From Mobula birostris (taxonomy: Eukaryota), in the NCBI RefSeq assembly GCF_030028105.1, contig NC_092382.1, positions 806,001 to 870,000 of the forward strand: 64,000 nt of DNA, written 5' to 3'. Positions 804 to 59,280 of the stretch are shown here, one piece after another. The notes under the pieces are model-generated. The model was not told the origin of the DNA. It worked only from the letters and a program-made list of their open reading frames with translations, and made no database searches. The first letter of the stretch is position 1, and every line of letters starts with the position of its first letter. Position numbers and translations under genes: made by a program.

Positions 804-1714
804 TTAGATAATTCCTATATGAATTAATTGAATAATTGACACGAGTGGATATTTCGCTGCGTTGACGAACTGCTCTCTGAATTTGGACTGAGTTACCCCA
901 TAAATAAAAGTGTTTGTGCAGCAAGTTAATATCATCAGCATGTATCCGGTGTGTTGAAAAATGTATTGAGAGTCATTGTACTTAGTTTGATCCAATCCGG
1001 CAATGACGCTATAAAGGAATTCGGCAACACTCACCGACCACAGGATGATGAAGCTGCCGGAGCTGGTGAGAAGTAAGATCACAGACCTCCTCCTGCTCTC
1101 CATCTCCGGGTCACTGCGGTTCTCCGCCTTGCTCTGACCCCTCAGCCCCTTACGGACGCGACTGGTCACTAGGATGTGTCTGACTGTCAGAGCGTTGAGC
1201 ATTAGTATAAATACGAACGGGAGCAATGGCGTTAGAACTGTCGAAAGCCACCTATATCCCAGCCACCCAGGACCTGTATAGTAATCCGACTTTGTAATAC
1301 AGTCCCAGGGTACATTGTCAATCACTTTCACAGGAAAATATACAAAGGCGTTGGGCACATTTTTAAAACCAAGCAAAACACCGATTGTTGTCAGAATCAC
1401 AGCCGCAGTTTTCCCGGTGCAATACTTTGCTTTCTGCTTCTGGCAACAGATGGCGACAAACCGATCAAATGTAAAAGTGACAGTGAACCAGACAGAACAG
1501 TCAGTGGCTGTCTGTCCCAGGGCAGAGATCACACTGCATACGGGGGTGATGTCCAGGAAAGTCCCAGGGAAGTAATAATAACTGACCCGCCACAATATCA
1601 CCGCAAAGACGATGGTCATTAGATCCGCCGTTGCCATGGCCACCAGGTAGTGAGTGGTGCAGGTAGAGAGACCGCACTTTCCCCGGAACAGGATCACAAT
1701 CGCCACAATATTCA
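804..1714 (-). CDS. GPR139/GPR142-like class A GPCR, gene A, exon 2 (325 aa when spliced to 3114-3180)
   Basis: 7-TM ORF with N in TM1, LVAMATADL (TM2), FTFDRFVAIC (DRY variant), LLPF (TM5), FIILW (TM6) and CCTNTFIY (TM7). Acceptor ccgcag|TG at 1715/1714, stop at 804-806. Confidence 0.92.
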
Positions 1715-3113
1715 CTGCGGGAATAGCAAAAGGAATGAGTGAATTATTATCTCGCCAGTCCATGGTTCTCAGTGTAGAGATTAGCTGTAAATTGAGAACA
1801 TTAACACTTTCCAGACAACTGGCTTCTGGAACTTTCTAAGGTGTAATGCGGGGTTGGCAGAAGCCTCACACACGTGCACTCTGGTGAAAAGGGTGCAGTA
1901 CTCGAGGAGGAGCAGAATTTGGGAAGGAGGCTCTGTCAACTGATCGCTCAGGGTGCTTTGCGGGTATCAATTTCCAACACCCACCAATAGGTTTTCGACT
2001 GATTTCTAATGCTTGGTCGCTCGGCAACTTGCTCAGCGATTCTGATTGCCACGATACCGTCACCTGTGTTCCGGCATTCTCCGCATGCGCAAAACCCCGC
2101 TCCCACACCGCTGCCTATTTACAAATTTCCCAGCAAAGTTCATTCTCCCGTTGTATTATCTTCCTATCCTCCTCGACATCTGTTTGTCACCCGCCCACTG
2201 TGGCCTCCCTTGGCTAGCTACTTATAAGTTCGGTAGCCACTCTTGCGGGTGTTCCTTCACGTTGTTTTCAAGGAATCTGAAGAGAAAGTTCAATTTTCGC
2301 TTTTAAACGTTTTGCCTGACTCGCTGAACGTTTCAAATATGTTACTAGTTAGTGTTTAATCCATCCAATTTCCAAAGGAGAAAACACAATATGTACATCA
2401 AAGCATGTGCCTCTGTTAGGGTTTGCTCCAAATTACTGCAGCGTTATTCTAAATATTTTGATGTTTGTTCTTTCAGATCGGAGAATTGCATGAAACTTAT
2501 CCCGTCTGAACTCTAACTGACACCAGCAGGGCTCTCTCTTAATTCCCTCTTCATTTCTCTGATAATGGGACGTGGAAAAATTCCTGGTTCACTATATCGC
2601 GTGCAGACCCTAATTTGAATCGTGGAAACTCCCGATGGTTCGAGGTGATAGCTACCGTGCTCTCCTGAATCTCACCGGGGATTCGCTTCTCAAGTTCCCT
2701 TCAAACTTGCAGTAATTTCTTAAAACACAAAGCAATACCTTTAAATGTGTATTTAACGCATGTTGCGCTATTGATTCGGGATAACACAAAGCAGCCGGTG
2801 AAGGTGCCGAGCGCACCGGATTATCGGAGGTTATTTTAACAACAGCTTTGCAATGATAATCCAAAACTGCTTGTCATGATTCAGCAAAATGTAGCCTTTT
2901 CCCCGATATCCCACTCTATATCAGTTTCAGCTGCCGGTTTATTTTCAGCGGAGGCCACAGCTGAAACTTCAAGGGAACTTCTGAACGAACACAAAGTTTT
3001 TGTCACAACGTCTGCAGCGCACTCACTGATACACCCGCGATCATGTCGGGAAAGGAACAAGTCCAAAGACCGCGCACACAGAACTGCAAATATTAGTTCG
3101 CCTATGTTCTTAC

Positions 3114-3180
3114 CAGGAACACCAATAACGGCAATGACCATGTACCATATCTTTCTCACACTGTAAAATGTTTCAAGCAT
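3114..3180 (-). CDS. Gene A exon 1 (MLETFYSVRKIWYMVIAVIGVP, phase 1)
   Basis: ATG at 3180, donor G|GTAAGA at 3114/3113. The same 67-nt exon precedes all four intact paralogs and completes TM1 (IGVP-VN). Confidence 0.9.
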
Positions 3181-3420
3181 TCTGTGAAAGATTCAGCCTG
3201 ACTCCCAGCTGCCCGCGATCTCGCTGAAGAAACTCTGAGCTGATGAATCTCCACGCTCATTCATTTCTACTCGCTCCAGCACGCTGAATATTCAATACTA
3301 CACAAGGCTGACGTATCTTACAACAGCCGGGGTAAAAAATAAACATGATGTCAGTCAAGTAAAGTCCCAATTGTGATGAGGTGTGACTAGCTTGATGCGA
3401 AATTGCAACATCGCAAAGAC
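3181..3420 (-). promoter_or_regulatory. Conserved 5' UTR/proximal promoter of gene A
   Basis: About 240-bp block alignable with the same region of genes B, C and D. The TATA position reads TAGAAAT (3263-3269). Confidence 0.6.
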
Positions 3421-5616: not shown

Positions 5617-6773
5617 ACATAGTCATACTCATAGTCATAGTCATACTTTATTGATCCCGGGGGAAATTGGTTTTCGTTACAGTTGCACCATAAATAATTA
5701 AATAGTAATAAAACCATAAACAGTTAAATAGCGATATGTAAATTATGCCAGGAAATAAGTCCAGGACCAGCCTATTGGCTCAGGGTGTCTGACCCTCCAA
5801 GGGAGGAGTTGTAAAGTTTGATGGCCACAGGCAGGAATGACTTCCTATGACGCTCTGTGTTGCATCTCGGTGGAATGAGTCTCTGGCTGAATGTACTCCT
5901 GTGCCCAACCAGTACATTATGTAGTGGATGGGAGACATTGACCAAGATGGCATGCAACCTGGACAGCATCCTCTTTTCAGACACCACCGTCAGAGAGTCC
6001 AGTTCCATCCCCACAACATCACTGGCCTTACGAATCAGTTTGTTGATTCTGTTGGTGTCTGCTACCCTCAGCCTGCTGCCCCAGCACACAACAGCAAACA
6101 TGATAGCACTGGCCACCACAGACTCGTAGAATATTCTCAGCATCGTCCGGCAGATGTTAAAGGACCTCAGTCTCCTCAGGAAATAGAGACGGCTCTGACC
6201 CTTCTTGTAGACAGCCTCAGTGTTCTTTGACCAGTCCCGTTTATTGTGAATTCGTATCCCCAGGTATTTGTAATCCTCCACCATGTCCACACTGACCCCC
6301 TGGATGGAAACAGGGGTCACCAGTACCTTAGCTCTTCTCAGGTCTACCACCAGCTTCTTAGTCTTTTTCACATTAAGCTGCAGATAATTCTTCTCACACC
6401 ATGTGACAAAGTTTCCTACCGTAGCCCAGTACTCAGCCTCATCTCCCCCGCTGATGCATCCAACTATGGCAGAGTCACCAGAAAACTTCTGAAGATGACA
6501 AGACTCTGTGCAGTGGTTGAAGTCCGAGGTGTAAATGGTGAAGAGAAAGGGAGACAAGACGGTCCCCTGTGGAGCCCCAGTGCTGCTGATCACTTTGTCG
6601 GACAGACAGTGTTGCAAGCACACGTACTGTGGTCTGCCAGTCAGGTAATCAAGAACCCATGACGCCAGGAAAGCATCCACCTGCATCGCTGTCAGCTTCT
6701 CCCCCAGCAGAGCAGGGCGGATGGTGTTGAAAGGACTGGAGAAGTCAAAAAACATGACCCTTACAGTGCTTGC
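5617..6773 (-). mobile_element. Young 5'-truncated Rex1/Babar LINE (RT and C-terminus)
   Basis: ORF 5772-6812 has [29 protein letters not shown] (decayed YADD-type motif) and YKYLG. AATAAA plus (TATGAC)n tail. Absent at the paralogous site upstream of gene C (~32570). Confidence 0.9.
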
Positions 6774-6824
6774 TGTCATGCGACTCACGCTGGGGGAAAA
6801 ATAATGGATCATAAAGTATCAAAT

Positions 6825-7996
6825 GACCACCTGAACAAAACAAACATCTACTTTAGGATGCTTTTCGTCGACTATAGCTCGGCATTTAATACCATCATTC
6901 GCACTAACCTGATTGAGAAGTTGCAGAACCTGGGCCTCTGTACCTCGCTCTGCAATTGGATCTTCGACTTCCTAACCGTAAGACCACAGTCTGTGAGGAT
7001 TGGTGATAACATGTCCTCTTCGCTGACGATCAACACTGGACACTCGGGGGGTGTGCTTAGCCCACTGCTCTGCTCTTTATATACACATGACTGTATGGCT
7101 AGGCATAGCTCAAATATCATCTATAAATTTGCTGACGATACCACAATTGTTGATAGAATCTCAGGGTGTGACGAGCGGGCGTACAGGAGTGAGATATGCC
7201 AACATGAGGAATGGTGCCGCAGCACAGCCCGGCACTCAACGTCGGTAAGACGAAAGAGCTCGTTGAAGACGGAACACATACAAATCCTCACAGAGGGATC
7301 AGAAGTGGTGAGAGTGAGCAGTTTCAAGTTCCTGGGTACCAAGATCTCTGAGATCTAACCTGGTCCCAACATATCGATGTAGTTATGAAGAAGGCAAGAC
7401 AGCGGCTGTAGTTTAGTAGGAGTTTGGACAGACTTTGCATGTCAACAAATACACTCAAAAACTTCTATAGCTGTACCGTGGAGAGCATTCTGACAGGCTG
7501 CATCAATGTCTGGTATGGAAGGGCTACGGCAGAGGACCGAAAGAAGCTGCAAAGAGTTGTAAATCTAGTCCGCTCCATCTTGGGTACTAACCTGCAAAGT
7601 ACCCAGGGCATCTTTAGGGAGCGGTGTCTCAGAAAGTCACCATTATTAAGGACCTCCAGCACCCAGGGCATGTCCTTTTCTCACAGTTACCATCAGGTCG
7701 GAGGTACAGACGCCTGAAGGCACCCACTCAGCGATTCAGGAACAGCTTCGTCCGCACTGCCATCCGTTTCCTAAATGGACATTGAATCTTTGGACAATAC
7801 CTCATTTCTGTTTTTCTGTTTCTGCACATTTTTATCTATTCAATACGTATATGTATACCATAATTGATTTACTTATTAAGTATTGTGTATTTATTTATCA
7901 TTGTTTTTTCTCTTTGCTAGATTATGTCCTGCATTAAACTGCTGCTGCTAAGTTCACATCACATGCCGGTGATAATAAAGCTGATTCTGATTTTGA
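6825..7996 (+). mobile_element. 5'-truncated Rex1/Babar LINE, second subfamily, frameshifted
   Basis: [24 protein letters not shown] and FKFLG. Ends in gataataaagctgattctgattttga. Confidence 0.88.
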
Positions 7997-9456: not shown

Positions 9457-10998
9457 TTAGACCATAAGACCATAAGACAAAGGAGCAGAAGTCGGCTATT
9501 CGGCCCATCGAGTCTGCTCCGCCATTTTATCATGAGCTGATCCATTCTCCTATTTAGTCCCACTCCCCCGCCTTCTCACCATAACCTTTGATGCCCTGGC
9601 TACTCAGATACCTATCAATCTCTGACTTAAATACACCCAATGAATTGGCCTCCACTGTTGCCCGTGGCAACAACTTCCATAGATTCACTACCCCCTGGCA
9701 AAAAAAAAAAATCTTCGCATCTCTGTTCTGAATGGGTGCCCTTCAATCCTTAAGTCATGCCCTCTCGTACTAGACTCCCCCATCATGGGAAACAACTTTG
9801 CCACATCAATTCTGTCCATGCCTTTCAACATTCGAAATGTTTCTATGAGGTCTCCCCTCACTCTTTTAAACTCCAAGGAATACAGTCCAACAGCGGACAA
9901 ACGATCCTCATATGTTAACCCTCTCATTCGCGGAATTATTCTAGTGAATCCTCTCTGTACTCTCTCCAACGTCAGCACATCCTTTCTTAAATAAGGAGAC
10001 CAAAACTGCCCACAGTACTCCAAGTGAGGTCTCACCAGCGCCTTATAGAGCCTCAACATCACATCCCTGCTCCTATACTCTATTCCTCTAGAAATGAATG
10101 CCAACATTGCATTCGCCTTCTTCACCACCAGCTCAACCTGGAGTTTAACCTTACGGGTATCCTGTACGAGGACTCCCAAGTCCGTTGCACCTCAGAACTT
10201 TGAATTCTCTCCCTATTTAAATAATAGTCTGCCCGTTTATTTTTTTCTGCCAAAGTGCATAACCATACACTTTCCAACATTGTACTTCATTTGCCACTTC
10301 TCTGCCCATTCTTCCAATCTATCCAAGTCTCTCTGCAGACTCTCCGTTTCCTCAGCACTACCGGCCCCTCCACCTATCTTCGTATCGTCAGCAAACTTAG
10401 CTACAAAGCCATCTATTCCATAATCCAAATCGTTGATGTACAATGTAAAAAGAAGCGGCCCCAACACTGATCCCTGTGGAACACCACTGGTAACCGGCAG
10501 CCAACCAGAATAGGATCCCTTTATTCCCACTCTCTGTTTCCTGCCAATTAGCCAACGCTCTATCCACGTATGTAACTTTCCTGTAATTCCATGGGCTCTT
10601 ATCTTGTTAAGTAGCCTCATGTGTGGCACCTTGTCAAAGGCCCTCTGAAAATCCAAATATGCAACATCCACTGCATCTCCCTTGTCTAGCCTACTGGTAA
10701 TTTCCTCAAAAAATTGTAATAGGTTTGTCAGGCAGGATTTTCCTTTAAGGAAATCATGCTGAGTTCTGCCTATCTTGTCATATGCCTCCAGGTACTCTGT
10801 AACCTCATCCTTGACAATCGACTCCAAGAACTTCCCAACCACCGATGTCAAGCTAACAGGTCTATAATTTCCTTTTTGATTCCTTGCCCCCTTCTTAAAT
10901 AGCGGAGTGACATTTGCAATCTTCCAGCCCTCCGGAACCATGCCAGAATCTATCGACTTTTGAAAGATCATTGTTAATGCCTCCGCAATCTCCGCTGC
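9457..10998 (-). mobile_element. CR1 LINE, 5'-truncated, relatively young
   Basis: ORFs 10237-10971 and 9688-10179 carry NYRPVSLTS, YLDFQRAFDKVPH, SGVPQGSVLGP, KFADDTK and LVRPHLEYC. Short tandem 3' tail near 9460-9478. Confidence 0.93.
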
Positions 10999-11199
10999 TA
11001 AGTATGTGCGGAACAGCGGATGTGTTCAAGCTCACCTGTCAATCACACTTCCTTCTGCTCTTGCAGTGCACCGCTCCGTGACTATTGTGTTACTCTACCG
11101 ATGAGCGGCCCTCGCCTTATCGGAGAGAGTCCCATCACTCTGATTCTATTATGGAACTTGTACTAATGTGCGGCTCTCGGTTGACTAAAGCAAGTAATA

Positions 11200-18514: not shown

Positions 18515-19425
18515 TTAGATGTGTTGTTTATTAATTAGTTGAATAATTGACGAGAGCGGATATTTCGCTGTGCTGATGAACTGCTCTCTGAACTTGGACT
18601 GAGTCACCCCATAAATAAACGTGTTTGTGCAGCAACTTAATATCATCAGCATGTATCCGGAGTGTTGAAATATATATTCCGAATCGTTGTAACTATTTTG
18701 ATCCAATCCAGCAATGGTGTAATAAAGGAATTCGGCAACTTTTACTGACCACAGGGTGATGAAGCTTCCGGAGATGGTGAGAAGTAAGATCACAGACCTC
18801 CTCCTGCTCTCCATCTCCGGGTCACTGCGGTTCTCCGCCTTGTTCTGACCCCTCAGCCCCTTACGGACCCGACTGGCCACCAAAATGTGTCTGACTGTCA
18901 GAGCGTTGAACAGCAGTATTAACACGAAGGGGAGCAATGGCGCTAGAACGGTAGAAAGCCAGCTATATCCCACCCACCTGCGATCCGTATAGTAACTCGA
19001 TTTACGAATGCAGCCCCAGGGTATATTATCAATTACTTTCATTGGTCGATACATAAAGAAGTAGGGCACATTTTTAAAACAGAAAAGAACGCCGGTTGTT
19101 GTCAAAACTACAGCCGCAGTTTTCCCCGTGCAATATTTTGTTTTCAGCTTCTGGCAACAGATGGCGACAAACCGATCAAACGTAAAGGTGACAGTGAACC
19201 AGACAGAACAGTCTGTGGCAGCCCTTAAGGGGACATAGTTCACACTGCATACGGCGGTGATGTCCAGAAACGTCCCGGGCAAGTAATAATTAAAGACCCG
19301 CCCCAATATAACCTGAAAGATGATGGTCAGTAGATCCGCCGTTGCCATGGCCACCAGGTAGCGAGTGGTGCAGGTGGAGAGGCCGCACTTTCCCCGGGAC
19401 AGGATCACAATCGCCACTAAATTCA
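18515..19425 (-). CDS. GPR139/GPR142-like GPCR, gene B, exon 2 (325 aa when spliced to 20762-20828)
   Basis: Intact 911-nt exon, acceptor tctccag|TG, same motifs as gene A. Confidence 0.92.
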
Positions 19426-20761
19426 CTGGAGAAACAGCAGAAATAATGAGCGAATTACTATCCCGCCGCCACACGGGTCTCAGCGCAAGAGAAGTGCATA
19501 AAAATTGAGAACAATCAAAGTTTGGAGACAACGCATTTCTGGAGTTTAACAGGTGTAAAGTGGGACTCGTAGATGCCCCGTACAATTACATGCTGGGTGA
19601 ATGGTAACAGTACTCGGTCCAGGAAGAGGAGCAGGGTTTGGGAAGGAGGCATTGTAAACGAATCGGGAAATATTCTTTGGTTAGGAGAAATCATTACAAA
19701 TCTCCAAACATCAAGTTTTTGACATCTATGAAGCTTGGATACATCGGAAATTTCTGATCGACGATGTTTGCTACGTTTCTGTCACATACATTCTGGAATC
19801 ACCCCATGCAGCGAAGCCCCGTTCCCTCCACCTCTGTCTCCCGTTCACATGTCTTCTCTTCCTCCCCAACTCCCGTTTGCCATCCGCGTACAGCGACCTC
19901 TGTTGCTTCGCTTCTTTAAAATTCTGCAACTACGCTTGACTGCGGTCGATTGCAATCAGGAAGTTCTAATTCCCGATTTGAAATGATTTTCATGTATTTT
20001 GAACGCTAGTGCTTAAACCATCCAGTTTCCATAGGAAAGCCAATGTATATTTTTCAAAATATTCGCTCTTTGAGGGGTTGCTCCAGAATTACTGCAGCAT
20101 TATTGTAAATGCCGCAAGGGTTATCGTTCCAGAGCGGAGTATCGTATGTACCTTACCCCGTTCGACCTCCAACAGACACTGCTGGGTTGGCTCTTAACTC
20201 CCTCTTCACTACACGTATCATAGGACATGGAAAGAAACTCTGGTGCACTAAAACGCAAACAGACCCTTGTTTGAATTTTGGAATTTCACGATGGCTGGGA
20301 GTCTAACTCACAAGTGATGTCTACCGTTCTCCGCTGAATCTCGCCGGCGACCCGCTTCCGCGATCCCGTCCAACTTGAAGCAAGTTTTTGAAAACGCAGC
20401 GCAATAGGATAAATCTGAATGTGAAGCATGTTACGCTATTGATTCAGAGTATCACCAAGTAGCCCGTAAAAATGCCGAGCGCGCTGGATTATCGGAGTTT
20501 ACTTTGACAGAGGCTTTGCATTGATAAATCACAAATGTCGGTCATGAATCTGCAAAATGGATCTACCTATTCTATCTTCCGCACTACAGCCGTTTCAGCT
20601 GCCGGTTTATTTTCAGCCGAGGTCACGGATTGAACACAGAGTTCTTTACAATGTCCGCATCGCACTCACTGATACACCGGTATCACAACGCTGTCGGTAA
20701 CTGAAAGAGTCCAACGACCGCGCACACAGGACAGCAAATGTCAGTTCGCCTCTGTTCTTAC

Positions 20762-20828
20762 CTGGAACACCAATAACGGCAATGATCAAGAAGTATATCT
20801 TTCTCACACGGAAAAATGTTTCAAGCAT
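20762..20828 (-). CDS. Gene B exon 1 (MLETFFRVRKIYFLIIAVIGVP)
   Basis: Donor G|GTAAGA at 20762/20761. An in-frame ATG 12 nt upstream (20840) is not shared with the paralogs. Confidence 0.88.
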
Positions 20829-23152: not shown

Positions 23153-25300
23153 TGTCCATATAACCCCAATTCTCATCCACAGTCCCTGTTCACTCATCCA
23201 ACCAGCCGGCTTGAATCAGTTGCTCCGAGCTTTCACCCTCCCTGCCTAAAGATGACCCTGTTGCATGTTGTACTTAGTTTCTGTTCTCCCTTGCTTCGTG
23301 GCCCTTCGTGGCTCGTTATGATGCGGTTTCTGATTAATCTTATCGATCAGTGCTGAATCCTCTCCGCTGTTCTGCTTTACGCCAAAACTCCTCTTCATTT
23401 CCTGACAGGATGAGAGAAACATCGATTGACCTAAAAGTATCGTTGCCTAAAAGAAATCGTCCGCCGACGTGAACACACGATCAGAAGCAGCAGGAAACCG
23501 ATAACTACAGTCCACCGCTCTCAGCGAAGTCTCCGCTCGATGTATCAGCTCCGCGTTCGTCAGCGTTCATCCTCTGAACCGAGGATTCTGCTGCCCGAAA
23601 GCTTTGACGGATCTCTAACCCGATGCTGCAATTTCCCGTCCCAGAGCGGCTTACACTTCGAGCTCCCATTTCTCTATATTCAATACGCCGTGTCAAGGTC
23701 GTCTTCCTTGTCCACCTCTTGGATGCACGAGCTCTGACCTGGGCTACCGCTTATGAAGACAGCATTTGCAATACATATGAGAATTTCACCGCTGACATGC
23801 GCTGCGTCTTCGAAACTTCCGAGATGTGCAGAGGAGGAAGCAGATCTGATACCTCACCTGCGACATGGATTGTGCCGTGCAGTCCAGGAGCCTCGCCCCG
23901 GGGTTCGGCTAGAATGGCGGAAGAGCCGCTTGTCCATTCCCATCACAGCCTCTCGGAGCAATTGAAATATGATCTGTTTGCCTGGGAGCTGCCCAATGAA
24001 CTGCGAAACCTCATCAATCGGACTCTCCGTATTGACAGCGATCTTACGGAGCAAGCCTCATCACCAATGGCTCCAGGACCCACGTTGTTAGGGAGAGATT
24101 CTTTAACACCCCCAAGAGTCCGAGCGTTGGTGGAGGAAACAAAAACCTGCGTAGCTAATATTGTGGAGCCGACCACCACCGCATCAAATATCAACCGACT
24201 CGGCTCTTCCCAGCTCCTCATTCCATTACCAGAGCCCGTCTCACTCCTTCTGTCCTTGCCCACAGTCCGTCGGCTCTACAGGCGAAGAAGTCTCTGCTGG
24301 ATACCGGCGCAGCAGATTACTTTCTGGATCGGACTGTGCGTATGCAGCTTGGACGCCCAACCGAATCTGTCCCTCACGCCATCGACATCGCGGCCATTGA
24401 CGAACCGTCCTTGGGATCTGAGACAGCCCGGGCGCCCACACAGCTTGTTCACCACGATTCATTCAATTCCTCACCCAACACTCCTTTCACCTTGTGTTAC
24501 TCTTGGATCCCCACTCAAGACCCTCACTTTGCCCGTGGAGTTGGAGACCCACCTGCCGGAATCCCGGCCTGCAACATCAGTTGACTCCACCCAATAAATC
24601 CGTGGAAACGGAGTGGACCCTGGCCGTCACCAATCCTGCACAGGACTATCACAACTTAGCCATTGCTTTCGGTAACAGAGAAGCAAACGCCCTGTCACCT
24701 CACAGACATGACCTCCTTCTGGACATCTCCCATTCCCGCGGCACTCTGTTCTCCCTCACACCTTCGCTGACTGAAACTATCGATGACGGCATGGCCGAAG
24801 CGGTAAAGCGCGGCTTCATCTGCCCAGCCGATTGTCCGAACGGTGCAGTATCTTCGTCTCTGCAGTGACAACGGTGGACTCACCAGGATCACCGTAACGA
24901 TACACAAACCTATGCCCCCATGGACAGCAAATTCACACACACACCGTGTGGTCCAGATCTGCAGAAATCCGATCAACATCCCCCAGGTGGTGGTGTGAAG
25001 GGCGGTGTATAGGGGTGGAGTTGGTGGGGGGTGGTGCTGCTGGGGGCTGGTGAATATGGAACACAGCGTTCATAACATCCACTGGGCACAAGGTGATGCA
25101 CTTCCGACTTTCCAACATTCTAGCCTTTTTCCACGCCTTCATTAATGATTCACTCCGCGATATGCTGCGCAGCTATGATTCCATCTACATCGACAACGTT
25201 GTCATCTACTCCAATAACAGAAAGGATAAAGTCATTCAGGTATGTTCAGTTCTACAGCTTCTCCTCTAAAAACCCCTTGTTCGACTAGAAAACCATCTTT
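23153..25300 (+). mobile_element. Decayed Gypsy (Sushi-like) LTR retrotransposon: 5' LTR, gag, protease, RT; 3'-truncated
   Basis: TG...CA LTR-like segment ~23153-23407. gag LLDARALTWATAY..YENFTADMRCVF, protease LLDTGAADYFLD (~24295), RT NTAFITSTGH..FINDSLRDML..IYIDNVVIYS (~25040-25210). Confidence 0.82.
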
Positions 25301-35904: not shown

Positions 35905-35971
35905 ATGCTTGAAACATTTTACCTTGTGAGGAAGATATGTCACATGATCATTGCCGTTATTGGTGTTCCTG
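35905..35971 (+). CDS. Gene C exon 1 (MLETFYLVRKICHMIIAVIGVP)
   Basis: ATG at 35905, donor G|GTGAGA. Confidence 0.9.
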
Positions 35972-37051
35972 GTGAGAACATAGGCGAATTAACTTTTGCA
36001 GTTCTGTGTGTACAGTCTTTGGACTCGTTCATTTACCGACAGCGTTGTCATGCCGCTGTGAATGTAAACCCCCTAATCCAGCGCGCTCGGTAGCTTTATG
36101 CGCTACCTGGTATAATTCTATATCAATAGTGCAACCTGCTTTAAATTCAAATGTAAAGACATTGCTCTGTGCTTTATGAAATCGCTGTAAGTGTGAAGGA
36201 AACGCGGGAAGCGACTCGCCAGTGAGCTTCAGGGGAGAGAGGTAGACAGCACTTATGACTTAGACTCCAAACTATCGGGAGTTTCCAACATTTAAATCAG
36301 GGTCTATGCGCGATTTTAGTGCACCAGGGATTGTTTCCATGAACTGTTCCGTGAAGCGATTGGAGTTAGGAGCCAATACAGCGATTTCCGTCAGGGGCTC
36401 TGGAACAATAAGCTTCGCATTCAGAAAAACACTGCAGTGATTTGGAGCGACATCTAAGACAGGAAGATGATTCGAAGTAAGTATATAGTCTATGCTTTAG
36501 AAATTGGATATTTTAAGCACTAACAAGCAAAATATCTGAAATGTTCATCCGGTCAGACACAATATTTAAAAGCGAAAATTGGAACTTTCTGATCCGACAT
36601 ACTGACACCGATCAGAAAAGAATTGGTGTAGGAACCCCAACAAATATTACTTGCAGAATTTAAAAGAAGCGAGGCAGCCGAGGCCCCGTGTGCAACGGGA
36701 ACTGAGGGGGAAGCGAAGACAATCGAACTAGAAAACTAAATTTATCTGAAATTCTTAAATGGAATGAGAAGGAAGGACCGGGATTCTCGATATGCCAAGA
36801 ATGGCAGAACATAGCTAACGGGAAGGCGGCGATCACTACCGCTGAGAATGCGGCCGAGGTATCCAACCGTCAGTAGAAAAGGTAATGATGGGAGAATGAT
36901 ATTGATTTCTACAAAGCACCCTTGGTGATCAGTTAACGATTCCAAAACAAAGTTCCTATTCCAGTACCGAGTATTCTTCTCAATTTCCAACTAATCTAGC
37001 ACATGGAGTGGCGAGACAGTAATTTACTCATTATTTTTGCTGTTCCCCCAG

Positions 37052-37962
37052 TGAATTTAGTGGCGATTGTGATCCTGTCCCGGGGAAAGTGCGGCATCTC
37101 CACCTGCACCACTCGCTACCTGGTGGCCATGGCTACGGCGGATCTACTAACCATCGCCTTTCAGGTCATATTGTGGCGAGTCAGTTATTATTACTTCCCC
37201 GGGACTTTCCTGGACATCACCCCCGTATGCAGTGTGATCTACGCCGTGGGTTTGGCTGCCACAGACTGCTCTGTCTGGTTCACCGTCACTTTCACGTTTG
37301 ATCGGTTTGTCGCCATCTGTAGGCAGAAGCTGGAAGCTGAGTATTGCACCGGGAAAACTGCGGCTGTGATTCTGATAACAAGCGGTGTTTTGTTCTTTTT
37401 TAAAAATGTGCCCATCTTCTTTATATTTCGTCCTGTTAACGTGATTGACAATATACCCTGGGACTGTATTCGAAAGCCTGCCTACTTTGCGGATCCCGGG
37501 TGGGTGGGATATAGAATGTTTTCCACCGTCCTAACGCCATTACTCCCGTTCGTGTTAATACTCCTGTTCAACGCTCTGACAGTCAGACACATCCTAGTGA
37601 CAAGTCGCGTCCGTAAGGGCCTGAGGGGCCATACCAAGGGAGATAACCGCAGTGACCCGGAGATGGAGAGCAGGAGGAGGTCTGTGATCTTACTTCTCAC
37701 CATCTCGGGCAGCTTCATCATCCTGTGGTCGGTGAGAGTTGCCGAATTCCTTTATAACACCATTGCCGTATTGGACCCATTTAATTACAACGTTACGGAA
37801 TACATAGTTGAACACTCCAGTTACATACTGATGTTATTAAGTTGCTGCACAAACTCGTTTATTTATGGGGTGACGCAGACAAAGTTCAGGGAGCAATTCA
37901 TCAGCGCAGCGAAATATCCTCTCACGTCAATTACTCAAATAATTAACAAATGCAATATCTAA
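37052..37962 (+). CDS. GPR139/GPR142-like GPCR, gene C, exon 2 (325 aa spliced)
   Basis: Acceptor ccccag|TG at 37051/37052, intact 911-nt exon ending in TAA. Confidence 0.92.
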
Positions 37963-49106: not shown

Positions 49107-51764
49107 CTGGAGAAAGAGAATGGAATGACATAAACATTATGATTCGCAATCCGGCACCCCCAACTTAATCGCCCTCCACTATCCGTCAAGGGTAAGGTTG
49201 AGTTACTGTTAACCTCAGATTCACAGCTATCGGAATCCAATGATTCACCAATCACGAGCATTAAAGAATTTCGTCTGATATCCATCGTGAACAGTGTATT
49301 TATTCTTCTGAAATGTTGCCTCATCGTCTTGGACTGCATGGTGCAGGATACATATTTCCAGTACCCAGACTGTCAATCATAGAATCATAGAAATCTACAG
49401 CGCATTACAGGCCCCTCGGCCCACAATGTTGTACCAACCATGTGGACTCAGATGGAGATTATCTGCAACATTTGCAAATCCTTTATCTTGTTCAGTGTGA
49501 ATGAATGCTCAGGTCATTGTTTGAATGAAGCAACTTCGTGACAAAGCGTCCAGTCCACTTAATCCAATTCCCGTCACAGTCCCGCCACATCAGAAGCCAA
49601 GAGGGTGAACATTCCTCTATTGCGAGTAGGTGTTTCTTAAGCAAGGAGCACAAGTTGCACACGATACACCAATTTTTGCCTCATAATGTCGAGACGAAAC
49701 TGGAGTAGGAAAACATTACTCTGACAGTGGCAAAAAGTTACTTGCTGAGAATATCAACTGACCATCTCTGAATCTAACTGGTTGCCCTATTTACACGTGA
49801 ACAATGAATAGTGTTCCAGGTGACCTGGGAATTGGCACACGAGGAATTTCCAATATATTATGCAAATCGCTATTTTGGTAGCATTTCGCTTTTAACTTTG
49901 CCCCATACATTACAGTTGTCTCATTTGTGACCAATAAACATCAACCTAATTGTTCACAGGTTGTTAGAGGGAAAAGATGGAATAGACGTTGAAGTCAAAG
50001 ATCTAAATATTTCGAACACTAATTCTGGTGGCATAAGGCAGGAAGTTGCAAATGTTATATTAGTAAATGACACCGCACAAGTGTGAAGCTTTTGAGAAGA
50101 CATCGGTGGCAGAATGATCAGGTTAGAGTAAAGGGCTGCGCTGGAATAAGCAGGCAAGCTCTTTTGCCAATGGCCATTAAGGGCAATATCAGGAACAATA
50201 CGGAGATGAGGCATCTGCCGGATATACGCAACCGGGATCAATCAGTTCCTTGTTCAGTATAGGGATCATGACAGTGCCTGAGTAGGACAAGGGTTGGCCA
50301 AGAAATACTCCTTACTGAAAAGATAACAGAGAAACCGAAACGATTGATTTTAAAAGTGTGGCTGCAGGGAATAGAGACCGTCCGCATAAATGGTGATCTA
50401 TCTGTAGAACCACAGGAAATGGTGGAACTGTTAAATGAACGCATCTCATCTACAATTACACGTGAGACGGACATTGTGAGTTCACTGCAGGGTTCATTGT
50501 CTGTGAGAGCAGATCAACACTGGAAGAGTTGAAGTTCTGGAGATCTTCATGAATATGGTCTCCAAATTTGAGGAAGGACATTCTTACTACTGAGAGAGTG
50601 CAGCATAGGTTCACGAGGTTAATTCCCGGGATGGCGGGACTGTCATATGTTGAAAGATTGGAGTGATTGGGCTTGTGTACGCTGGAATTTAGTAGGATGA
50701 GAAGGGATCTGATTGAAACATATAAGATTGTTAAGGGATTGGACACGCTAGAGGCAGGAAACATGCTCCCGATTGAGGGGAAGTCCAGAACCAGAGGCCA
50801 CAATTTGAGAATAAGGGATAGGCCATTTAGAACGGTGTTGAGGAAAACTTTTTCACCCAGAGAGCTGTGGATCTGTGGAATGCTCTGCCTCAGAAGGCAG
50901 TGGAGGCCAATTCTCTGGATGCTTTCAGGAAAGAGTTAGATAGAGCTCTTAAAGATAGTGGAGTGAAGGGATATGGGGAGAAGGCAGGAACGGGGTAAAG
51001 ATTGTGCATGATAAGCCATGGTCACAGTGAATGGCGGTGCTGGCTCGAAGGGCCGAATGGCCTACTGCTGCGCCTATGGTCTATTGTATATTGTCTATCC
51101 TGATATCCTCGCCTCCTCGATCCTCTGGGGGAACAAAGCAGAGACTGCTGTGCCCTTGGAAGCGATCTTTGTGTCCTCGTTATCAAACAGTGATGAATGG
51201 GAAGGATGGCGGATGGACAATGTTGTGTCGCAATGTAAGACACAGATAAGCCGGGAACTACTGTAGATGAGCTTCACAACAGTGCAGGGTCAGACAATGG
51301 ATGGGATTCAGATGGACAGGATTTACCTGAAGAGACAAGTGGTGTCGCCGGCGGGGGGTCAGTTTGACCGGGTGGGCAATGCAGTGACAGGTGGAATACA
51401 GTGTATGAAGGTGTGGGGTAGCACTTAGGAAAGAAAGATTAATGCGCAGAGAAGTTTCTAATTGCGGAGGTAATTCAGAAAAAAAGAGATTCATATGAAG
51501 TGACGAGTCGCAGCTCTGGATTTACTGAAGGCTAACGTGCAGGGCAATTGCTTAGTAAAGAAGCGAATGCAATGCCGGCAGAGGAGTCGCATTTGATGCC
51601 ACCGATGGCGTGGAGGACCGGTACGAGGGTGAAGTTAAAGAAAACAGTTTGATTGTTAATTCGTTAGTGGGTTCACAGTTTCTTGGTGAATAGACTTGGG
51701 TTGAGAAAGAGATTACCTGAGAAAGAACAGCAGAAGAGCTCGATGGAGCGAATGAGCCGATTGT

Positions 51765-52715: not shown

Positions 52716-53626
52716 TTAGATATTGCGTTTGTTAATCATTTGAATAATTGACGTGAGAGGATATTTCGCTGCGCTGATGAACTGCTCTCTGAACTTTGTC
52801 TGCGTTACCCCATAAATAAAAGTGTTTGTACAACAACTTAATAACATCAGCATGTAACCGGTGTGTTCAACTATGTATTCCGTAACGTTGTAATTATTCT
52901 GATCCAATCCGGCGATGGTGTAATAAAGGAATTCGGCAACACTCACCGACCACAGGATGATGAAGCTGCCGGAGATGGTGAGAAGTAAGATCACAGACCT
53001 CCTCCTGCTCTCCATCTCCGGGTCACTGCGGTTATCTCCCTTGTTCTGACCCCTCAGGCCCTTACGGACGCGACTTGTCACTAGGATGTGTCTGACTGTC
53101 AGAGCGTTGAACAGTACTATTAACACGAACGGGAGTAATGGCATTAAAACGGTAGAAAACATTCTATATCCCACCCACCCGGGATCCTCAAAGTAAGCGG
53201 GCTTTCGAATGCAGTCCCAGGGTATGTTGTTAATCACGTTAACAGGACGAAATATAAAGAAGATGGGCATATTTTTAAAACAGAGCAGAACGCCGATTGT
53301 TATCAGAACCACAGCCGCAGTTTTCCCGGTGCAATACTTTGCTTTCAGCTTCTGGCAACAGATGGCGACAAACCGATCAAACGTGAAAGTGACGGTGAAC
53401 CAGACAGAACAGTCTGTGGCAGCCAGACCTACGGCGTAGATCACACTGCATACTGGGGTGATGTCCAGGAAAGTCCCGGGGAAGTAATAATAACTGACCC
53501 GCCACAATACGACCTGAAAGATGATGGTTAGTAGATCGGCCGTTGCCATGGCCACCAGGTAGCGAGTGGTGCAGGTGGAGAGGCCGCACTTTCCCCGGGA
53601 CAGGATCACAGTCGCCACTAAATTCA
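52716..53626 (-). CDS. GPR139/GPR142-like GPCR, gene D, exon 2 (325 aa when spliced to 54935-55001)
   Basis: Acceptor ccccag|TG at 53627/53626, intact 911-nt exon. Confidence 0.92.
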
Positions 53627-54700
53627 CTGGGGGAACGGCAAAAAAGAATGAGTGAATTGCTGTCTTGCCCCTCCATGGGCTGGATTAGCTGAAAATTGAC
53701 AACAATAAAACATTGCGAACAACTCATTTCTGGAGTTTTAAAAGTTGTAAAACGGTACGGTGCTCGGTACTGGAATAGGAACACTGTTTTGGAAGTAGGC
53801 ATTGCCAACTGATCACGGAGGGCGCTTTGTAGAAATCAATATCATTCTCCCATCATCGACTGATTTGTAAAGCCTGGATACCTCGTCCGCTTTCTCAGCA
53901 ATGGTGATCGCCACGTTCTCGTCAGCTAAACTCTGCCACTCTCCGCGTACCGAGAAGCTCGGTCCCTCCACTTCTTTCCATTGACAAATTTCAATGTAAA
54001 TTTAGTTTTCTATTTCGACTGCCTTCGCTTCCCCCTCGGTTTCAGTTTGCACACAGGAGCCTCGGCTGGCATGGTTCTTTTAAATTCTGCAAGTAATATT
54101 TATCGGGGCTCCTATACCCATTCCTTTCTGATCGGTGACAATGTGTCCGATCAGAAAGTTCCAATCTTCTCTGACCGGATGAACGTTTCAGATATTTTGC
54201 TCGTTAGTGCTTAAAACAACCAATTCCTAAAGCGCAGTTACATCGAAACATCTGCCTGTTTTAGATGTCGCTCCAAATCACTGCAGTGTTTCTCTAAATG
54301 ATTCGATGCTTATTGTTCCAGAGCCGCCTATGGCCTTTACCTTACCCTGTCTGACCTCTAACGGAAACCGCTGTATTGGCTCAAAACTCCCGCATCACTT
54401 CACGGAACAGGACATGGAAACAAACCCTGGTGCGCTAAAGCGCGCACAGACCCTGACTTAAAGTTGGAAACTCCGGATGGTTTGGAATCTAAGTCACGTG
54501 ATCTCTACCTCTCTCCCCTGAATCTCACCGGCGATCCGCTTCCCGCGTTTCTTTCACATTTGCAGCAATTTCTTAAAGCACAGCGTAATGCCTTTAGATT
54601 TGAATTTAAAGCAAGTTACACTATTAATATGGAATAATACCAAGTAGCCCATAAAGCTACCGTGCGATTATAAAGGATTACATTAACAGTGGCATCACAA

Positions 54701-54851
54701 GGCATCCGTTAGTCTTGCGAGACCATGGATCTGCGACTGGAAAATCTTCACTCTCCAGGTTGCAGACCTGGGCAAGGTTGTATGGAAGACCAGCAGCTGC
54801 CCATGCTGCAAGTCTCCCCTCTCCACGACACCAGTGTTGTCCAAGGGAAGC
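54701..54851 (-). mobile_element. Short retroposon (RTE-related SINE-like) in the gene D intron
   Basis: 10-bp TSD GGCATCACAA at 54691-54700 and 54852-54861. Empty site in the gene C intron (~36045). Family and orientation are tentative. Confidence 0.75.
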
Positions 54852-54934
54852 GGCATCACAACGCTGTCAGTAACTGAACGAGTCCAAACACTGTATACAC
54901 AGAACAGCAAAAGATAGTTCTCCTAAGTTCTTAC

Positions 54935-55001
54935 CAGGAACACCAATAACGGCAATGATCATGTGCCATATCTTTCTCACGCGGTAGAATGTGTCAAGCA
55001 T
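54935..55001 (-). CDS. Gene D exon 1 (MLDTFYRVRKIWHMIIAVIGVP), not in the ORF track
   Basis: ATG at 55001, donor G|GTAAGA at 54935/54934. Confidence 0.9.
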
Positions 55002-56125: not shown

Positions 56126-58050
56126 CAGCGGTGATAGCAAGTGTGTGAAACCTGTAGAATTTTCTCTATTGCAGCACAAATATGACCTAAAATGTGTACA
56201 GACTTTCATGTACGTTCTAAAACTAGACTAAGCGAACACAATTAAATAAATAACACAAAAACATTGTACTTGTTAATTTATTTACCGTGACTAATGATCC
56301 AATTTTACATGTATTTGCTGGAAAGGTATGTGAACCTCTGGGTGAACGCGTCCTACAAAAGCTATTTGAAATCAAGTGTTCCAATCAATGAGATAGGACT
56401 GGAGGTGTCGGTTGTGGAAATTGCCTGCCCTATTAAAAACGAAACACAAAATCAGGTTACTGATAGAGCCCGCTCTTCTCAAAGAGGATCTGTTTATCGA
56501 CATCATGCTTCGATCGAAACGAATTTCAGAGAACCTTAGAAGAAGAATTGTAGAGATACATGACGCTGGAAATGGCTACAGAAGTATTTCTAATTACCTG
56601 AGTGTTCAGAAGTCCACAAATAGAGAAACTGTCAACAAGCAGAGGAAAGTCGGTGCTGTTGCTACTGTACCTGCGGGTGTGCATTCTGCAAAGGTCACGC
56701 CAAGCGAACAGCGTGCAGTGCTGAAGGAGGTGAGAAAAAACACAAGGGTAACAGCAAAAGATCTGCAGAAACCTACAACTTGCGACTCTGTCCATGTGAC
56801 TACTACAAGAAAAACGCTGAATATGAATGATGCTTATTGAAAGCACCACGGGGGAAACCACTGCTCTCCAAACAAAAAAACTAATAACATTGCTGCACGT
56901 CTCAAGTTTGCAAAAGGCGACCTCGATGTTCTACAATGCCTCCGGGACAATCTTCGGTGGATAGATGAGAAAAAAAAGAGGTGAACATTTTGGTGACGGA
57001 GGATGAGAGGTGACCTGACAGAGGTGTATAAGATGATGAGAGGCATTGATCGTGTGGATAGTCAGAGAGTTTTCCTCGGGCTGAAATGGCTAACACGAAG
57101 GGGCATAGCTTCAGGGTGCCTGGACACAGGATAGGGTTATCACACAGAGAGCGGTGAGTGCGCGGAATGCACTGCCTGCGACGGTGCTGGAGGCGATACA
57201 ATGGGGCCTTTTAAGGGACTGTTAGATAGGCACAAGTTGCTTAGAAAAAGTGCTATGCAGTTGGGTAATTCTAAGCAGGTTACATGGTCGGCACAATACT
57301 GTGGGCCTATGGGCCTGGAATCTGCTGTAGATTTCTATGTAAATGCTCATTGCATGTCTGGAGGGAAAAGGGCCCTGCACACCAACGCCAATACACCGTC
57401 CCAGGTTTGGTGCCGCAGGGCCTAGACAGCCTGCAACCACAGAGGGAAAAACGAATTCAAAATTGTACCAAGACATTTTGCAGAGGGACTCTAGTGTCGT
57501 AATCCATCACCTGAGGCTTAATAGAAGTTGAACAATGTAACAAGCATTGATCCGAAAGATATGAGTAATTCAACAACAGCATGGTATACAAAGAAGAAAA
57601 TTCTTGTCCTGTAATGGCCGAGTCAAAGTTCTGAACTTAATCCGTAGAAATGTTGTGGATGGACGTGAAGTAAGTAGTCATGCAAGGAGGCCTAGCAACG
57701 CCCCAGAGTTGAAGCGGCTTTGTCGGGAGGAATGACCTAAAATTCCTCCAGGTCAATGTGCAGGACTGTTCAATTGCTACCGGAAACGTTTGTTTAAAGG
57801 TATTGCTGTACAAGGTGGTCACACCTGTATTGAAATCAAAGGTTCACATACTTTTTTTTCCCAACAAATATATGTAACGTTAGATAATATTTTCCTTAAA
57901 TAAATGAACAAGTATAATATTTTATGTTTTTATTTAATTGGGTTCTCTTTATCGAGTTTTAGGACCTATGTGAAGATCGGATCAAATTTTCGGTCATATT
58001 TATGTAGAAAGAGATCAAATTGAACAGGGTTCACAAACTTTCCAGCACCG
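56126..58050 (+). mobile_element. Decayed near-full-length Tc1 transposon (IR/DR-type long TIRs)
   Basis: TA TSDs at 56124-5 and 58051-2. ~210-bp TIRs with an internal repeat (GTGAACC). Transposase N-terminus MLRSKRISENLRRRIVEIHDAGNGYRSIS and WPSQSSELNP near 57615. Empty site upstream of gene B (~22210). Confidence 0.9.
56993..57340 (+). mobile_element. CR1 3' fragment nested in the Tc1 transposase
   Basis: RRMRGDLTEVYKMMRGIDRVDSQ plus CR1 3' UTR. Confidence 0.8.
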
Positions 58051-58376
58051 TAGGTAGTCATATGTACCTATTTGATATTCTGAATTGCACTTTTTCTGCA
58101 AAGATAACACGACATTGTATTTTCAAGGTTAAATCAGTGAAACTGGCCCCATCCGGAACTGGATCGCTGTTGTTCCCGACGATTACCCACATCTCGTCAT
58201 ATCTCCACAGCGGGGAAGGCAGGTCTGAGACAGTGTGACCCGTGCTTGGTGATAGATAAGCAGCTGCTCACCGCCTCTGGCGCTCATGGCCATTGGCGGA
58301 AACCCGAACCCGTGTCCATTCCCGGAGTATGTGTTCAATAATTCCCAGTGTCTGTTCTCTGTCTCTCTCCCTGCAG

Positions 58377-59280
58377 TGAACTTAGTGGCGATTGTGATCC
58401 TGTCCCGGGGAAAGTGTGGCCTCTCTACCTGTACCACCCGCTACCTGGTGGCCACGGCAGCGGCGGATCTACTGACCGTTGTCACCGAGGTCTTTGTGCG
58501 TCAAGTCATAAATTATTACTTTCCGTGGAATTTTTTGAACACTACCCCGATGTGCAGAGTTGTCGAGGTACTGAGGTTCACAGCCACATACTGTTCTGTC
58601 TGGTTCACCGTCATGTTCACTGTTGATCGCTTTGTCGCTATTTGCTGTCAGAAACTAAAAACAAAATATTGCACCGGGAAAACTGCGGCTGTGGTTCTAA
58701 CAACAACCGCCGTGCTGTCCTTTCTGAAAAAATGTTCCCCGTTACTTCCTCTGGGAACCCAGAGAGATCATCGAGAATGTAACATGGTTCTGCAAGCTCA
58801 TGGAATATACTTTCACTGACCCCGGATGGGTAGTATACGATTAGCTTGATATAGTTTTGAATCCGTTCATTCGTTGTGATCCTGTTACTCAACGCTCTGA
58901 CATTCAGGCACATTTTAGTGGCCAGTCGGGTCCGTAAGGGACTGAGAGGTCAGGGCAAAGGCGAGAATCGCAGTGACCCGGAGATGGAGAGCAGGAGGAG
59001 GTCTGTGATCTTACTCCTCGCCATCTCCGGAAGCTTCATCACCCTGTGGCTGACACTAGTTGTAAATTTCATGTATTATGAGATCAAAGGAATTGGATTC
59101 GATTTCAATGATTCTGAGGTGATCTTTCACAACGCCAGGATTTTGCTGAAGAATTTCAGCTGCTGCACGAGCACATTTATTTACGCTGTGACTCAGTCGA
59201 AATTCAGGGAGCAGGTGATCAGCGCGGTGAAATATTCGTTCAACTGGGTGCGACAGGTCATTAATAAAGCCGCGTCCTGA
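58377..59280 (+). pseudogene. GPR139-like GPCR pseudogene (exon 2 only, second subfamily)
   Basis: Acceptor ctgcag|TG, +1 A in the run at 58727-32, TGG>TAG at 58842-44 and a small deletion near 58870. No exon 1 found upstream. Confidence 0.88.

Follow-up and report, generated by a model that had tools for sequence, protein, structure and literature searches.

At one end of a 64,000-nucleotide stretch of manta ray DNA (Mobula birostris, NC_092382.1, positions 806,001 to 870,000; the window) lies a receptor gene, here gene A, which carries the automatic label 'GPR139' and has several paralogues nearby. The first-pass annotation had proposed that the ligand pocket of these receptors is hypervariable and their intracellular face near-invariant, so that ligand specificity is diversifying while one transduction pathway is retained. 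The question raised by this locus is what kind of family it belongs to, and whether the contrast between the two faces reflects changing ligands, relaxed constraint or an artefact.

Gene A and its copies

The product of gene A is a 325-residue class A GPCR with two coding exons (Table 1). Positions 804-1714, to which the first-pass annotation referred, cover exon 2 only; exon 1, at 3114-3180, encodes a very short N-terminus and the outer half of TM1, matches the N-terminus of P0001 at 100% and has a GT donor directly 3'. Exon 2 is identical in protein to P0001, whose source name is 'probable G-protein coupled receptor 139 [Mobula birostris]'. In run X3, from a related organism, one contig connects 1714 with 3114, with CT..AC ends at the predicted splice sites. 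Such an exon-joining contig was found in 1/8 runs, which were guessed to be RNA, came from other organisms at 80% likeness and had no tissue labels; in several others the contigs were unspliced and continued past the acceptor.

The Pfam 7tm_1 profile scored 74 bits on gene A (cut-off 30.5) and was above cut-off in all four intact paralogues. The AlphaFold model (pLDDT 77, pTM 0.74; chosen among five, the other four scoring 40-69) has seven TM helices followed by helix 8 and a hairpin in ECL2, and in a Foldseek search it resembled peptide receptors with a TM-score of about 0.7. By sequence, the best solved-structure match was GPR139 (E=2e-5). Among paralogues, D2.50, D3.49, R3.50, W6.48 and N7.49 were present in 55/55, Y7.53 in 54/55 and both disulfide cysteines in 53/55, with P6.50 kept in 7/55 and P7.50 in 0/55.

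Table 1. Positions of gene A, its parts and its copies in the window.
Feature	Positions	Strand	Details
Gene A exon 1	3114..3180	-	ATG at 3180, 22 codons + 1 base
Gene A intron	1715..3113	-	phase 1, in TM1, 1399 bases
Gene A exon 2	804..1714	-	residues 23-325
Conserved ICL1 RGKCGLSTCTT	1653..1685	-	dN 0.27
Variable TM3 segment SVISALGQTATDC	1497..1535	-	includes S86 (3.29), G89 (3.32), Q90 (3.33)
Conserved DRFVAIC	1446..1466	-	dN 0.14
ICL2 Q116 and A118	1428..1436	-	fast intracellular sites; 116 partly CpG-driven
TM4 top and ECL2 hairpin	1293..1352	-	fast sites N144, V147, F149, T163
Conserved SDPEMESRRRSVILL	1071..1115	-	residues 223-237, ICL3 end and cytoplasmic TM6 start
S251 (6.51)	1029..1031	-	counterpart of GPR139 R244; N/S/K/R/D in main clade
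TM7 pocket face	930..956	-	Q276 (7.35), Y280 (7.39), I284 (7.43)
Conserved helix 8 start TQSKFREQ	870..893	-	dN 0.24
Paralogue B, intact	18515..20828	-	exon 1 20762-20828, exon 2 18515-19425
Paralogue C, intact	35905..37962	+	exon 1 35905-35971, exon 2 37052-37962
Pseudogene	48235..49119	-	a stop and frameshifts
Paralogue D, intact	52716..55001	-	exon 1 54935-55001, exon 2 52716-53626
Pseudogene	58334..59280	+	frameshifts and a stop; 11 near-identical copies sampled, this one included

The A-B-C block (window 804-37962) is repeated at G000:C17:19.16-19.20 Mb with gene order and strands unchanged and with matching spacing (17.7 and 18.5 kb). Gene A itself exists in six copies in the genome at 98-100% identity, the five besides A being at 98-99%; this and the repeated block represent recent segmental duplication. 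Remains of mobile elements lie at 5772-7358, 9688-11025, 23608-24597 and 56397-56840, comprising fragments of reverse transcriptase, a weakly matching DUF4939 domain and the HTH of a Sleeping-Beauty-type transposase.

Upstream regions of the family keep a TATA box together with CRE-like and E-box motifs. At the TATA position of gene A (3264-3269, minus strand, ~85 bases 5' of the ATG) the sequence reads TAGAAA, as against TATAAA in 37 intact records, and in the close copies of gene A sequence coverage stops short of this position. To judge from this altered box, expression of gene A may be weak.

A shark and ray family separate from GPR139

The genome was screened with two independent DNA patterns, which matched 539 places in one case and 813 in the other, with 0 control matches. 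From the overlap of the two patterns (TM3 and ICL3), the copy number is estimated at 1,270-1,380, or about 1,300, which is probably low. The overlap was taken from the first listed places rather than from random samples: 39/100 TM3-pattern loci had the other pattern and 64/100 ICL3-pattern loci had the TM3 pattern. Exon 2 was intact in 59/100 and 58/100 sampled loci (read-through locus L170 excluded), so about 40% are broken. Large clusters of the family lie on C17 and C24; at G000:C24:54-68 Mb there is a second young one, which has >100 copies and shows a signal of recombination.

In a 46-row tree, 27 shark and ray proteins formed a single clade (support 99/96), within which subfamilies are common to sharks and rays, and the sister of this clade was formed by amphibian and sturgeon proteins (support 100/98). 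Manta GPR139 is a separate gene elsewhere in the genome (a single pattern match, on C11) and falls outside the family clade, as do two single manta relatives. The family is thus a relative of GPR139 and not GPR139 itself, and orthology of gene A with GPR139 is ruled out both by this placement and by its differing pocket residues. Membership of the broad GPR139/142-related group is indicated by GPR139 being the nearest solved relative and by a common splice position in TM1, the intron acceptor lying at the equivalent place before N1.50 in manta GPR139 and in the two other single relatives.

GPR139 is, with GPR142, an orphan receptor of class A; it responds to L-Trp and L-Phe and couples mainly to Gq/11 (PMC8807744). 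It resembles the family in the TM1 acceptor position, the lack of P7.50 and the short N-terminus, and is the source of the automatic name of gene A. The two differ, however, in C3.25 and an ECL2 cysteine, which occur in the family but not in GPR139, and in P6.50, which the family mostly lacks. At the positions of GPR139 E3.32/F3.33/R6.51/N7.39, gene A has G/Q/S/Y, and these positions vary across paralogues. Other relatives of GPR139/142 are the orphan subtypes GPR210A and GPR210B of coelacanth, gar and fishes (Rinne et al., PMC6504862), the passages of that paper on these subtypes making no mention of sharks. L211 (G000:C18:55.2 Mb) and L212 (G000:C3:115.3 Mb), each a single gene in manta, fall in clades with GPR139-like proteins of coelacanth, teleosts and anchovy. 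To go by this grouping, their clades are probably the GPR210 subtypes. Unlike the family, these candidate clades are single matches in manta, and they fall outside both the family and the amphibian sister.

The sister gene, which appears to be undescribed, is exemplified by Xenopus tropicalis XP_031757816.1 and Pleurodeles XP_069092602.1 and is also auto-named 'probable GPR139'. The 20 amphibian matches form one cluster per named species (protein matches, not genome copy counts), and no amniote or teleost members were found among 25 matches. Position 2.50 is N in its proteins (P0228, P0299-P0318) and position 1.50 is S in the amphibian ones, which is unusual for class A. A DPE-x-RR core, an ICL2 YCT motif and both cysteines are common to the family and its sister.

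Variation across the receptor and tests of selection

The two halves of the receptor differ in their rate of change. Genes A and B differ at 36/123 outer positions and at 14/138 inner positions (Fisher p=1.2e-4). In 84 paralogues, dN scaled by the dS of the whole gene was 0.66 (0.63-0.70) in the outer half and 0.22 (0.20-0.24) in the inner half, and a replicate with 54 genes from a protein search gave 0.64 and 0.20. The 84 are all distinct, have an intact exon 2 and come from 103 places, with 9 duplicate records left out; the inner-half total omits the nine codons that the search pattern itself fixes, and the custom codon-model code reproduces the IQ-TREE M0 likelihood. The contrast of a variable outer with a steady inner half, on which the first-pass annotation was built, thus exceeds chance. 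All five TM3 strings that it quoted were found among the six paralogues (A-D and two broken copies), and the variability it reported in ECL2 and ECL3/TM7 is borne out by fast sites in both loops and by varying residues on the TM7 pocket face.

The claim of near-invariant intracellular motifs held, with two corrections. All four motifs were found as quoted, and their variants are few (RGKCGISTCTT in C, TQTKFREQ in C and D, SDPEMESRNRSVVLL in the 48-kb pseudogene), but ICL2, which was not among the listed motifs, has a dN of 0.50 in the 84 paralogues, with residues 116 and 118 fast. The motif assigned to ICL3 is conserved as claimed, the preceding loop being more variable than SDPEMESRRRSVILL, but most of it belongs, in the model, to the cytoplasmic start of TM6: predicted helix 6 begins at residue 225, where model pLDDT is only about 50-67.

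Synonymous change tracks dN along the gene (dS 0.85 inner, 1.23 outer; in TM3-pattern loci 0.5-0.7 at the TM6 start and 1.5-1.6 in ECL2 and ECL3). The contrast between halves is 3-fold in dN and 1.4-fold in dS. A low synonymous rate (0.26-0.55) was also observed at 1686-1712, just past the splice acceptor, and at 1071-1115 the rate was 0.12 in two clades and 0.5-0.7 family-wide. Splicing enhancers or conversion are possible causes at both places. A DNA-level element at SDPEMESRR, suggested by the dS of 0.12, was dropped, as the 0.5-0.7 of TM3-pattern loci lies on the general dS-dN trend.

Seventeen ligand contacts of GPR139 are named in PMC8807744. The 14 in helices were mapped onto the family by alignment, the 3 in ECL2, which is not alignable, being omitted; on manta GPR139 the named residue was reached at 12/14 positions. 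Omega averaged 1.10 at the 14 contact positions, as against 0.55 at 81 further positions in the outer TM segments (p=0.0005 by permutation). In 50 non-redundant of 114 proteins, residue-class entropy was 1.42 in the pocket vs 0.75 and the charged fraction 0.27 vs 0.07. The peaks of entropy, at 2.57, 2.61, 2.64, 3.29, 3.32, 3.33, 5.39, 5.42, 6.51, 6.54, 7.35 and 7.39, lie on one face of each helix, and charge swaps are frequent there. Variability is concentrated at predicted pocket-facing positions and not on the lipid face, with facing taken from the GPR139 alignment. Set against their own dS, the 14 pocket sites have a pooled omega of 0.78, so release from constraint, which is evident at the pocket, explains much of the pattern.

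The comparison with amphibians is the strongest and clearest test of pocket diversification. Pocket entropy was 0.11 in 20 amphibian proteins (77% mean identity) and 1.29 in 28 manta main-clade proteins (79%). N3.29, Y3.32, F3.33, T4.61, D5.39, K6.51, E6.58, R7.35, N7.39 and V7.43 are identical in 20/20 amphibians. Moreover, variation in the amphibian proteins is greater in the inner half, opposite to manta (outer/inner entropy 0.36/0.56 in amphibians, 0.81/0.37 in the manta main clade). The sister thus differs from the family in a nearly invariant pocket with F3.33, K6.51 and N7.39, and the positions predicted to line it, frozen where the ligand is presumably fixed, are those that vary among ray paralogues.

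The M7/M8 type of check proposed in the first-pass annotation returned omega>1. Comparison of M8a with M8 gave 2dL 85.7 in 84 genes (with 5.6% of sites at omega 2.4), 67.4 in 57 main-clade genes and 36.6 in 55 TM3-pattern genes; the signal withstood CpG modelling alone (2dL 81.8) and double-base changes alone at their best-fitting rate (39.6 and 51.9). However, neutral simulations with codon-rate variation also pass the uncorrected test (9/9, 2dL 13-119), so the positive M8 result is not decisive here. Variation of this kind is a known mechanism of false positives (PMC7403620). With dN and dS rates fully coupled per codon, 2dL fell to 0.1, 3.3 and 5.0, and to 0.1-0.5 with CpG added. A free-coupling model was the best fit (exponent about 0.4), retaining omega 1.5-1.7 at 6-7% of sites with 2dL 5.3-10.9. 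In its calibration the observed 2dL was 6.7, as against 0-1.1 in 8 null simulations and 3.0-20.4 in five alternative ones. A 2dL of 7.2 in the C24 clade was set aside because of recombination (PHI p=0.001; main clade p=0.92). Positive selection on the family is therefore supported but modest, and a plain M7/M8 result on the manta family should not count as proof of it.

Fast sites that recurred were Q90 (3.33), T163, S251 (6.51), V147, F149, N144 and, in ICL2, A118 and Q116; C-tail residues 318-319 were also fast. A FUBAR-like grid gave posterior >0.9 at 163, 251, 147, 116, 118 and 86, and not at 90, 144 or 265. T163, two residues past the ECL2 cysteine, was the sole site remaining under free coupling in the TM3-pattern set. 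In 33 near-identical pseudogene copies (8 families, of 69 broken), 99 differences were spread evenly over codon positions and halves. Changes numbered 39 in the outer half (41.0 expected), 45 in the inner half (43.2 expected) and 2 at the nine top sites (3.0 expected). Given these counts, a 2-2.5-fold hot spot at the top sites has P=0.02-0.06. Mutational hot spots are therefore an unlikely cause of the fast sites, although the count is small.

A hydrophobic ICL2 residue matters for G-protein coupling. Residue 116 is L in 18/20 amphibians and R, W, Q or L in the manta main clade. Coupling may therefore differ between copies. The R to W and R to Q changes are CpG changes, and the posterior of the site falls to 0.68 with CpG modelled. 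Elsewhere, purifying selection on the inner face fits shared coupling, and is common in receptor families.

Origin and role of the family

Repertoires of OR, TAAR and V1R/ORA receptors arise by clustered birth and death, with many pseudogenes, a variable pocket and a conserved cytoplasmic face. The manta family matches them in each respect, its pocket being a predicted one; the pattern is that of known receptor repertoires. It differs from them in belonging to another lineage, in its two coding exons and in that no olfactory-type promoter signature was found. In 24 upstream regions (400 bases before the ATG), the strict Ebf palindrome occurred in 0/24 and TAATTR-type sites were not enriched (14 upstream vs 13 in introns), so that odorant-receptor-type regulation by Ebf and homeodomain sites was not seen within that distance.

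The best explanation, to which we give a probability of about 0.55, is that these two-exon class A GPCRs are a large family evolving by birth and death, and that its copies likely have different ligands and a shared G-protein pathway and form a chemosensory repertoire. The ancestor would have had a GPR139-like pocket (F3.33, a basic residue at 6.51, N7.39 and W6.48, as kept in amphibians), with an aromatic amino acid or a peptide-like molecule as its ligand. Once the family had expanded in cartilaginous fishes, the pocket contacts would have been released and partly driven to change, the cytoplasmic face being held by purifying selection as predicted pocket-lining residues came to vary between copies. 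Copies would then recognise different ligands, likely through the shared pathway, as a putative chemosensory repertoire. That ligand specificity is diversifying, as first proposed, is thus favoured by pocket-face residues that vary here and are nearly invariant in the amphibian sister, and less so by the corrected evidence for omega>1. Counting against the best explanation are the loss of omega>1 under coupled rates, the fast ICL2 and C-tail sites, the missing Ebf/TAATTR signature, the ~40% of broken copies and the absence of any GPCR among the top-50 catshark 'brain & olfactory epithelium' genes as given in the relevant passage of PMC11979771.

It is unlikely, on present evidence, that a relaxed pocket and genomic drift account for the family by themselves, with segmental duplication, a pocket omega near 1 and selection acting only on fold and cytoplasmic face (ligand-free or redundant signalling). 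Coupled-rate models need no omega>1 class, and the repeated A-B-C block, the near-identical gene A copies and the many broken ones all suit such drift. However, the omega 1.5-1.7 class stays in the best-fitting, simulation-calibrated model, pseudogenes lack a hot spot at the top sites, W6.48 and the disulfide cysteines are retained (55/55 and 53/55), and subfamilies are common to sharks and rays.

Formyl-peptide and Mas-related receptors offer an analogy for an immune or surveillance repertoire, whose receptors would sit on leukocytes or skin and sense peptides or metabolites of microbes or parasites. The peptide-receptor-like predicted fold with its ECL2 hairpin and the fast ECL2 and ECL3 agree with such a role, which we nonetheless consider improbable: an arms race would be expected to leave stronger positive selection, and NF-kB and IRF motifs are not enriched upstream (2 and 1 of 24 regions, vs 4 and 2 in introns). 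Finally, an artefact in which gene conversion homogenises conserved segments and outer segments mutate faster would suit the tracking of dN by dS and the recombining C24 clade, but is largely refuted and very improbable given the larger contrast in dN, even mutation in pseudogenes, the main-clade PHI result and variability that alternates along one helix face on a scale finer than a conversion tract.

The chemosensory reading bears on a group described as having few class A chemoreceptors (PMC6368271; GPCR paucity, PMC8455134), catshark having only 5-8 genes in each of the OR, TAAR and V1R/ORA families (PMC6368271). No published description of the shark and ray family was found in the open-access literature, the relevant passages of PMC12208981 dealing with invertebrate relatives only. 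New here are the frozen-pocket sister gene of amphibians and sturgeon, the calibration of the selection tests and the ICL2 exception. More tentatively, sharks and rays could possess an undescribed chemosensory family the size of a mammalian odorant-receptor repertoire, derived from a GPR139-related ancestor that left one fixed-pocket sister gene in amphibians and sturgeon. If sensory, the roughly one thousand variable-pocket receptors under the 'GPR139' label would change the picture of few chemoreceptors in these fishes; if immune, the manta family would be a new surveillance system. Through the sister gene of Xenopus and axolotl (XP_069461538.1), the ancestral ligand and tissue could be approached in laboratory animals.
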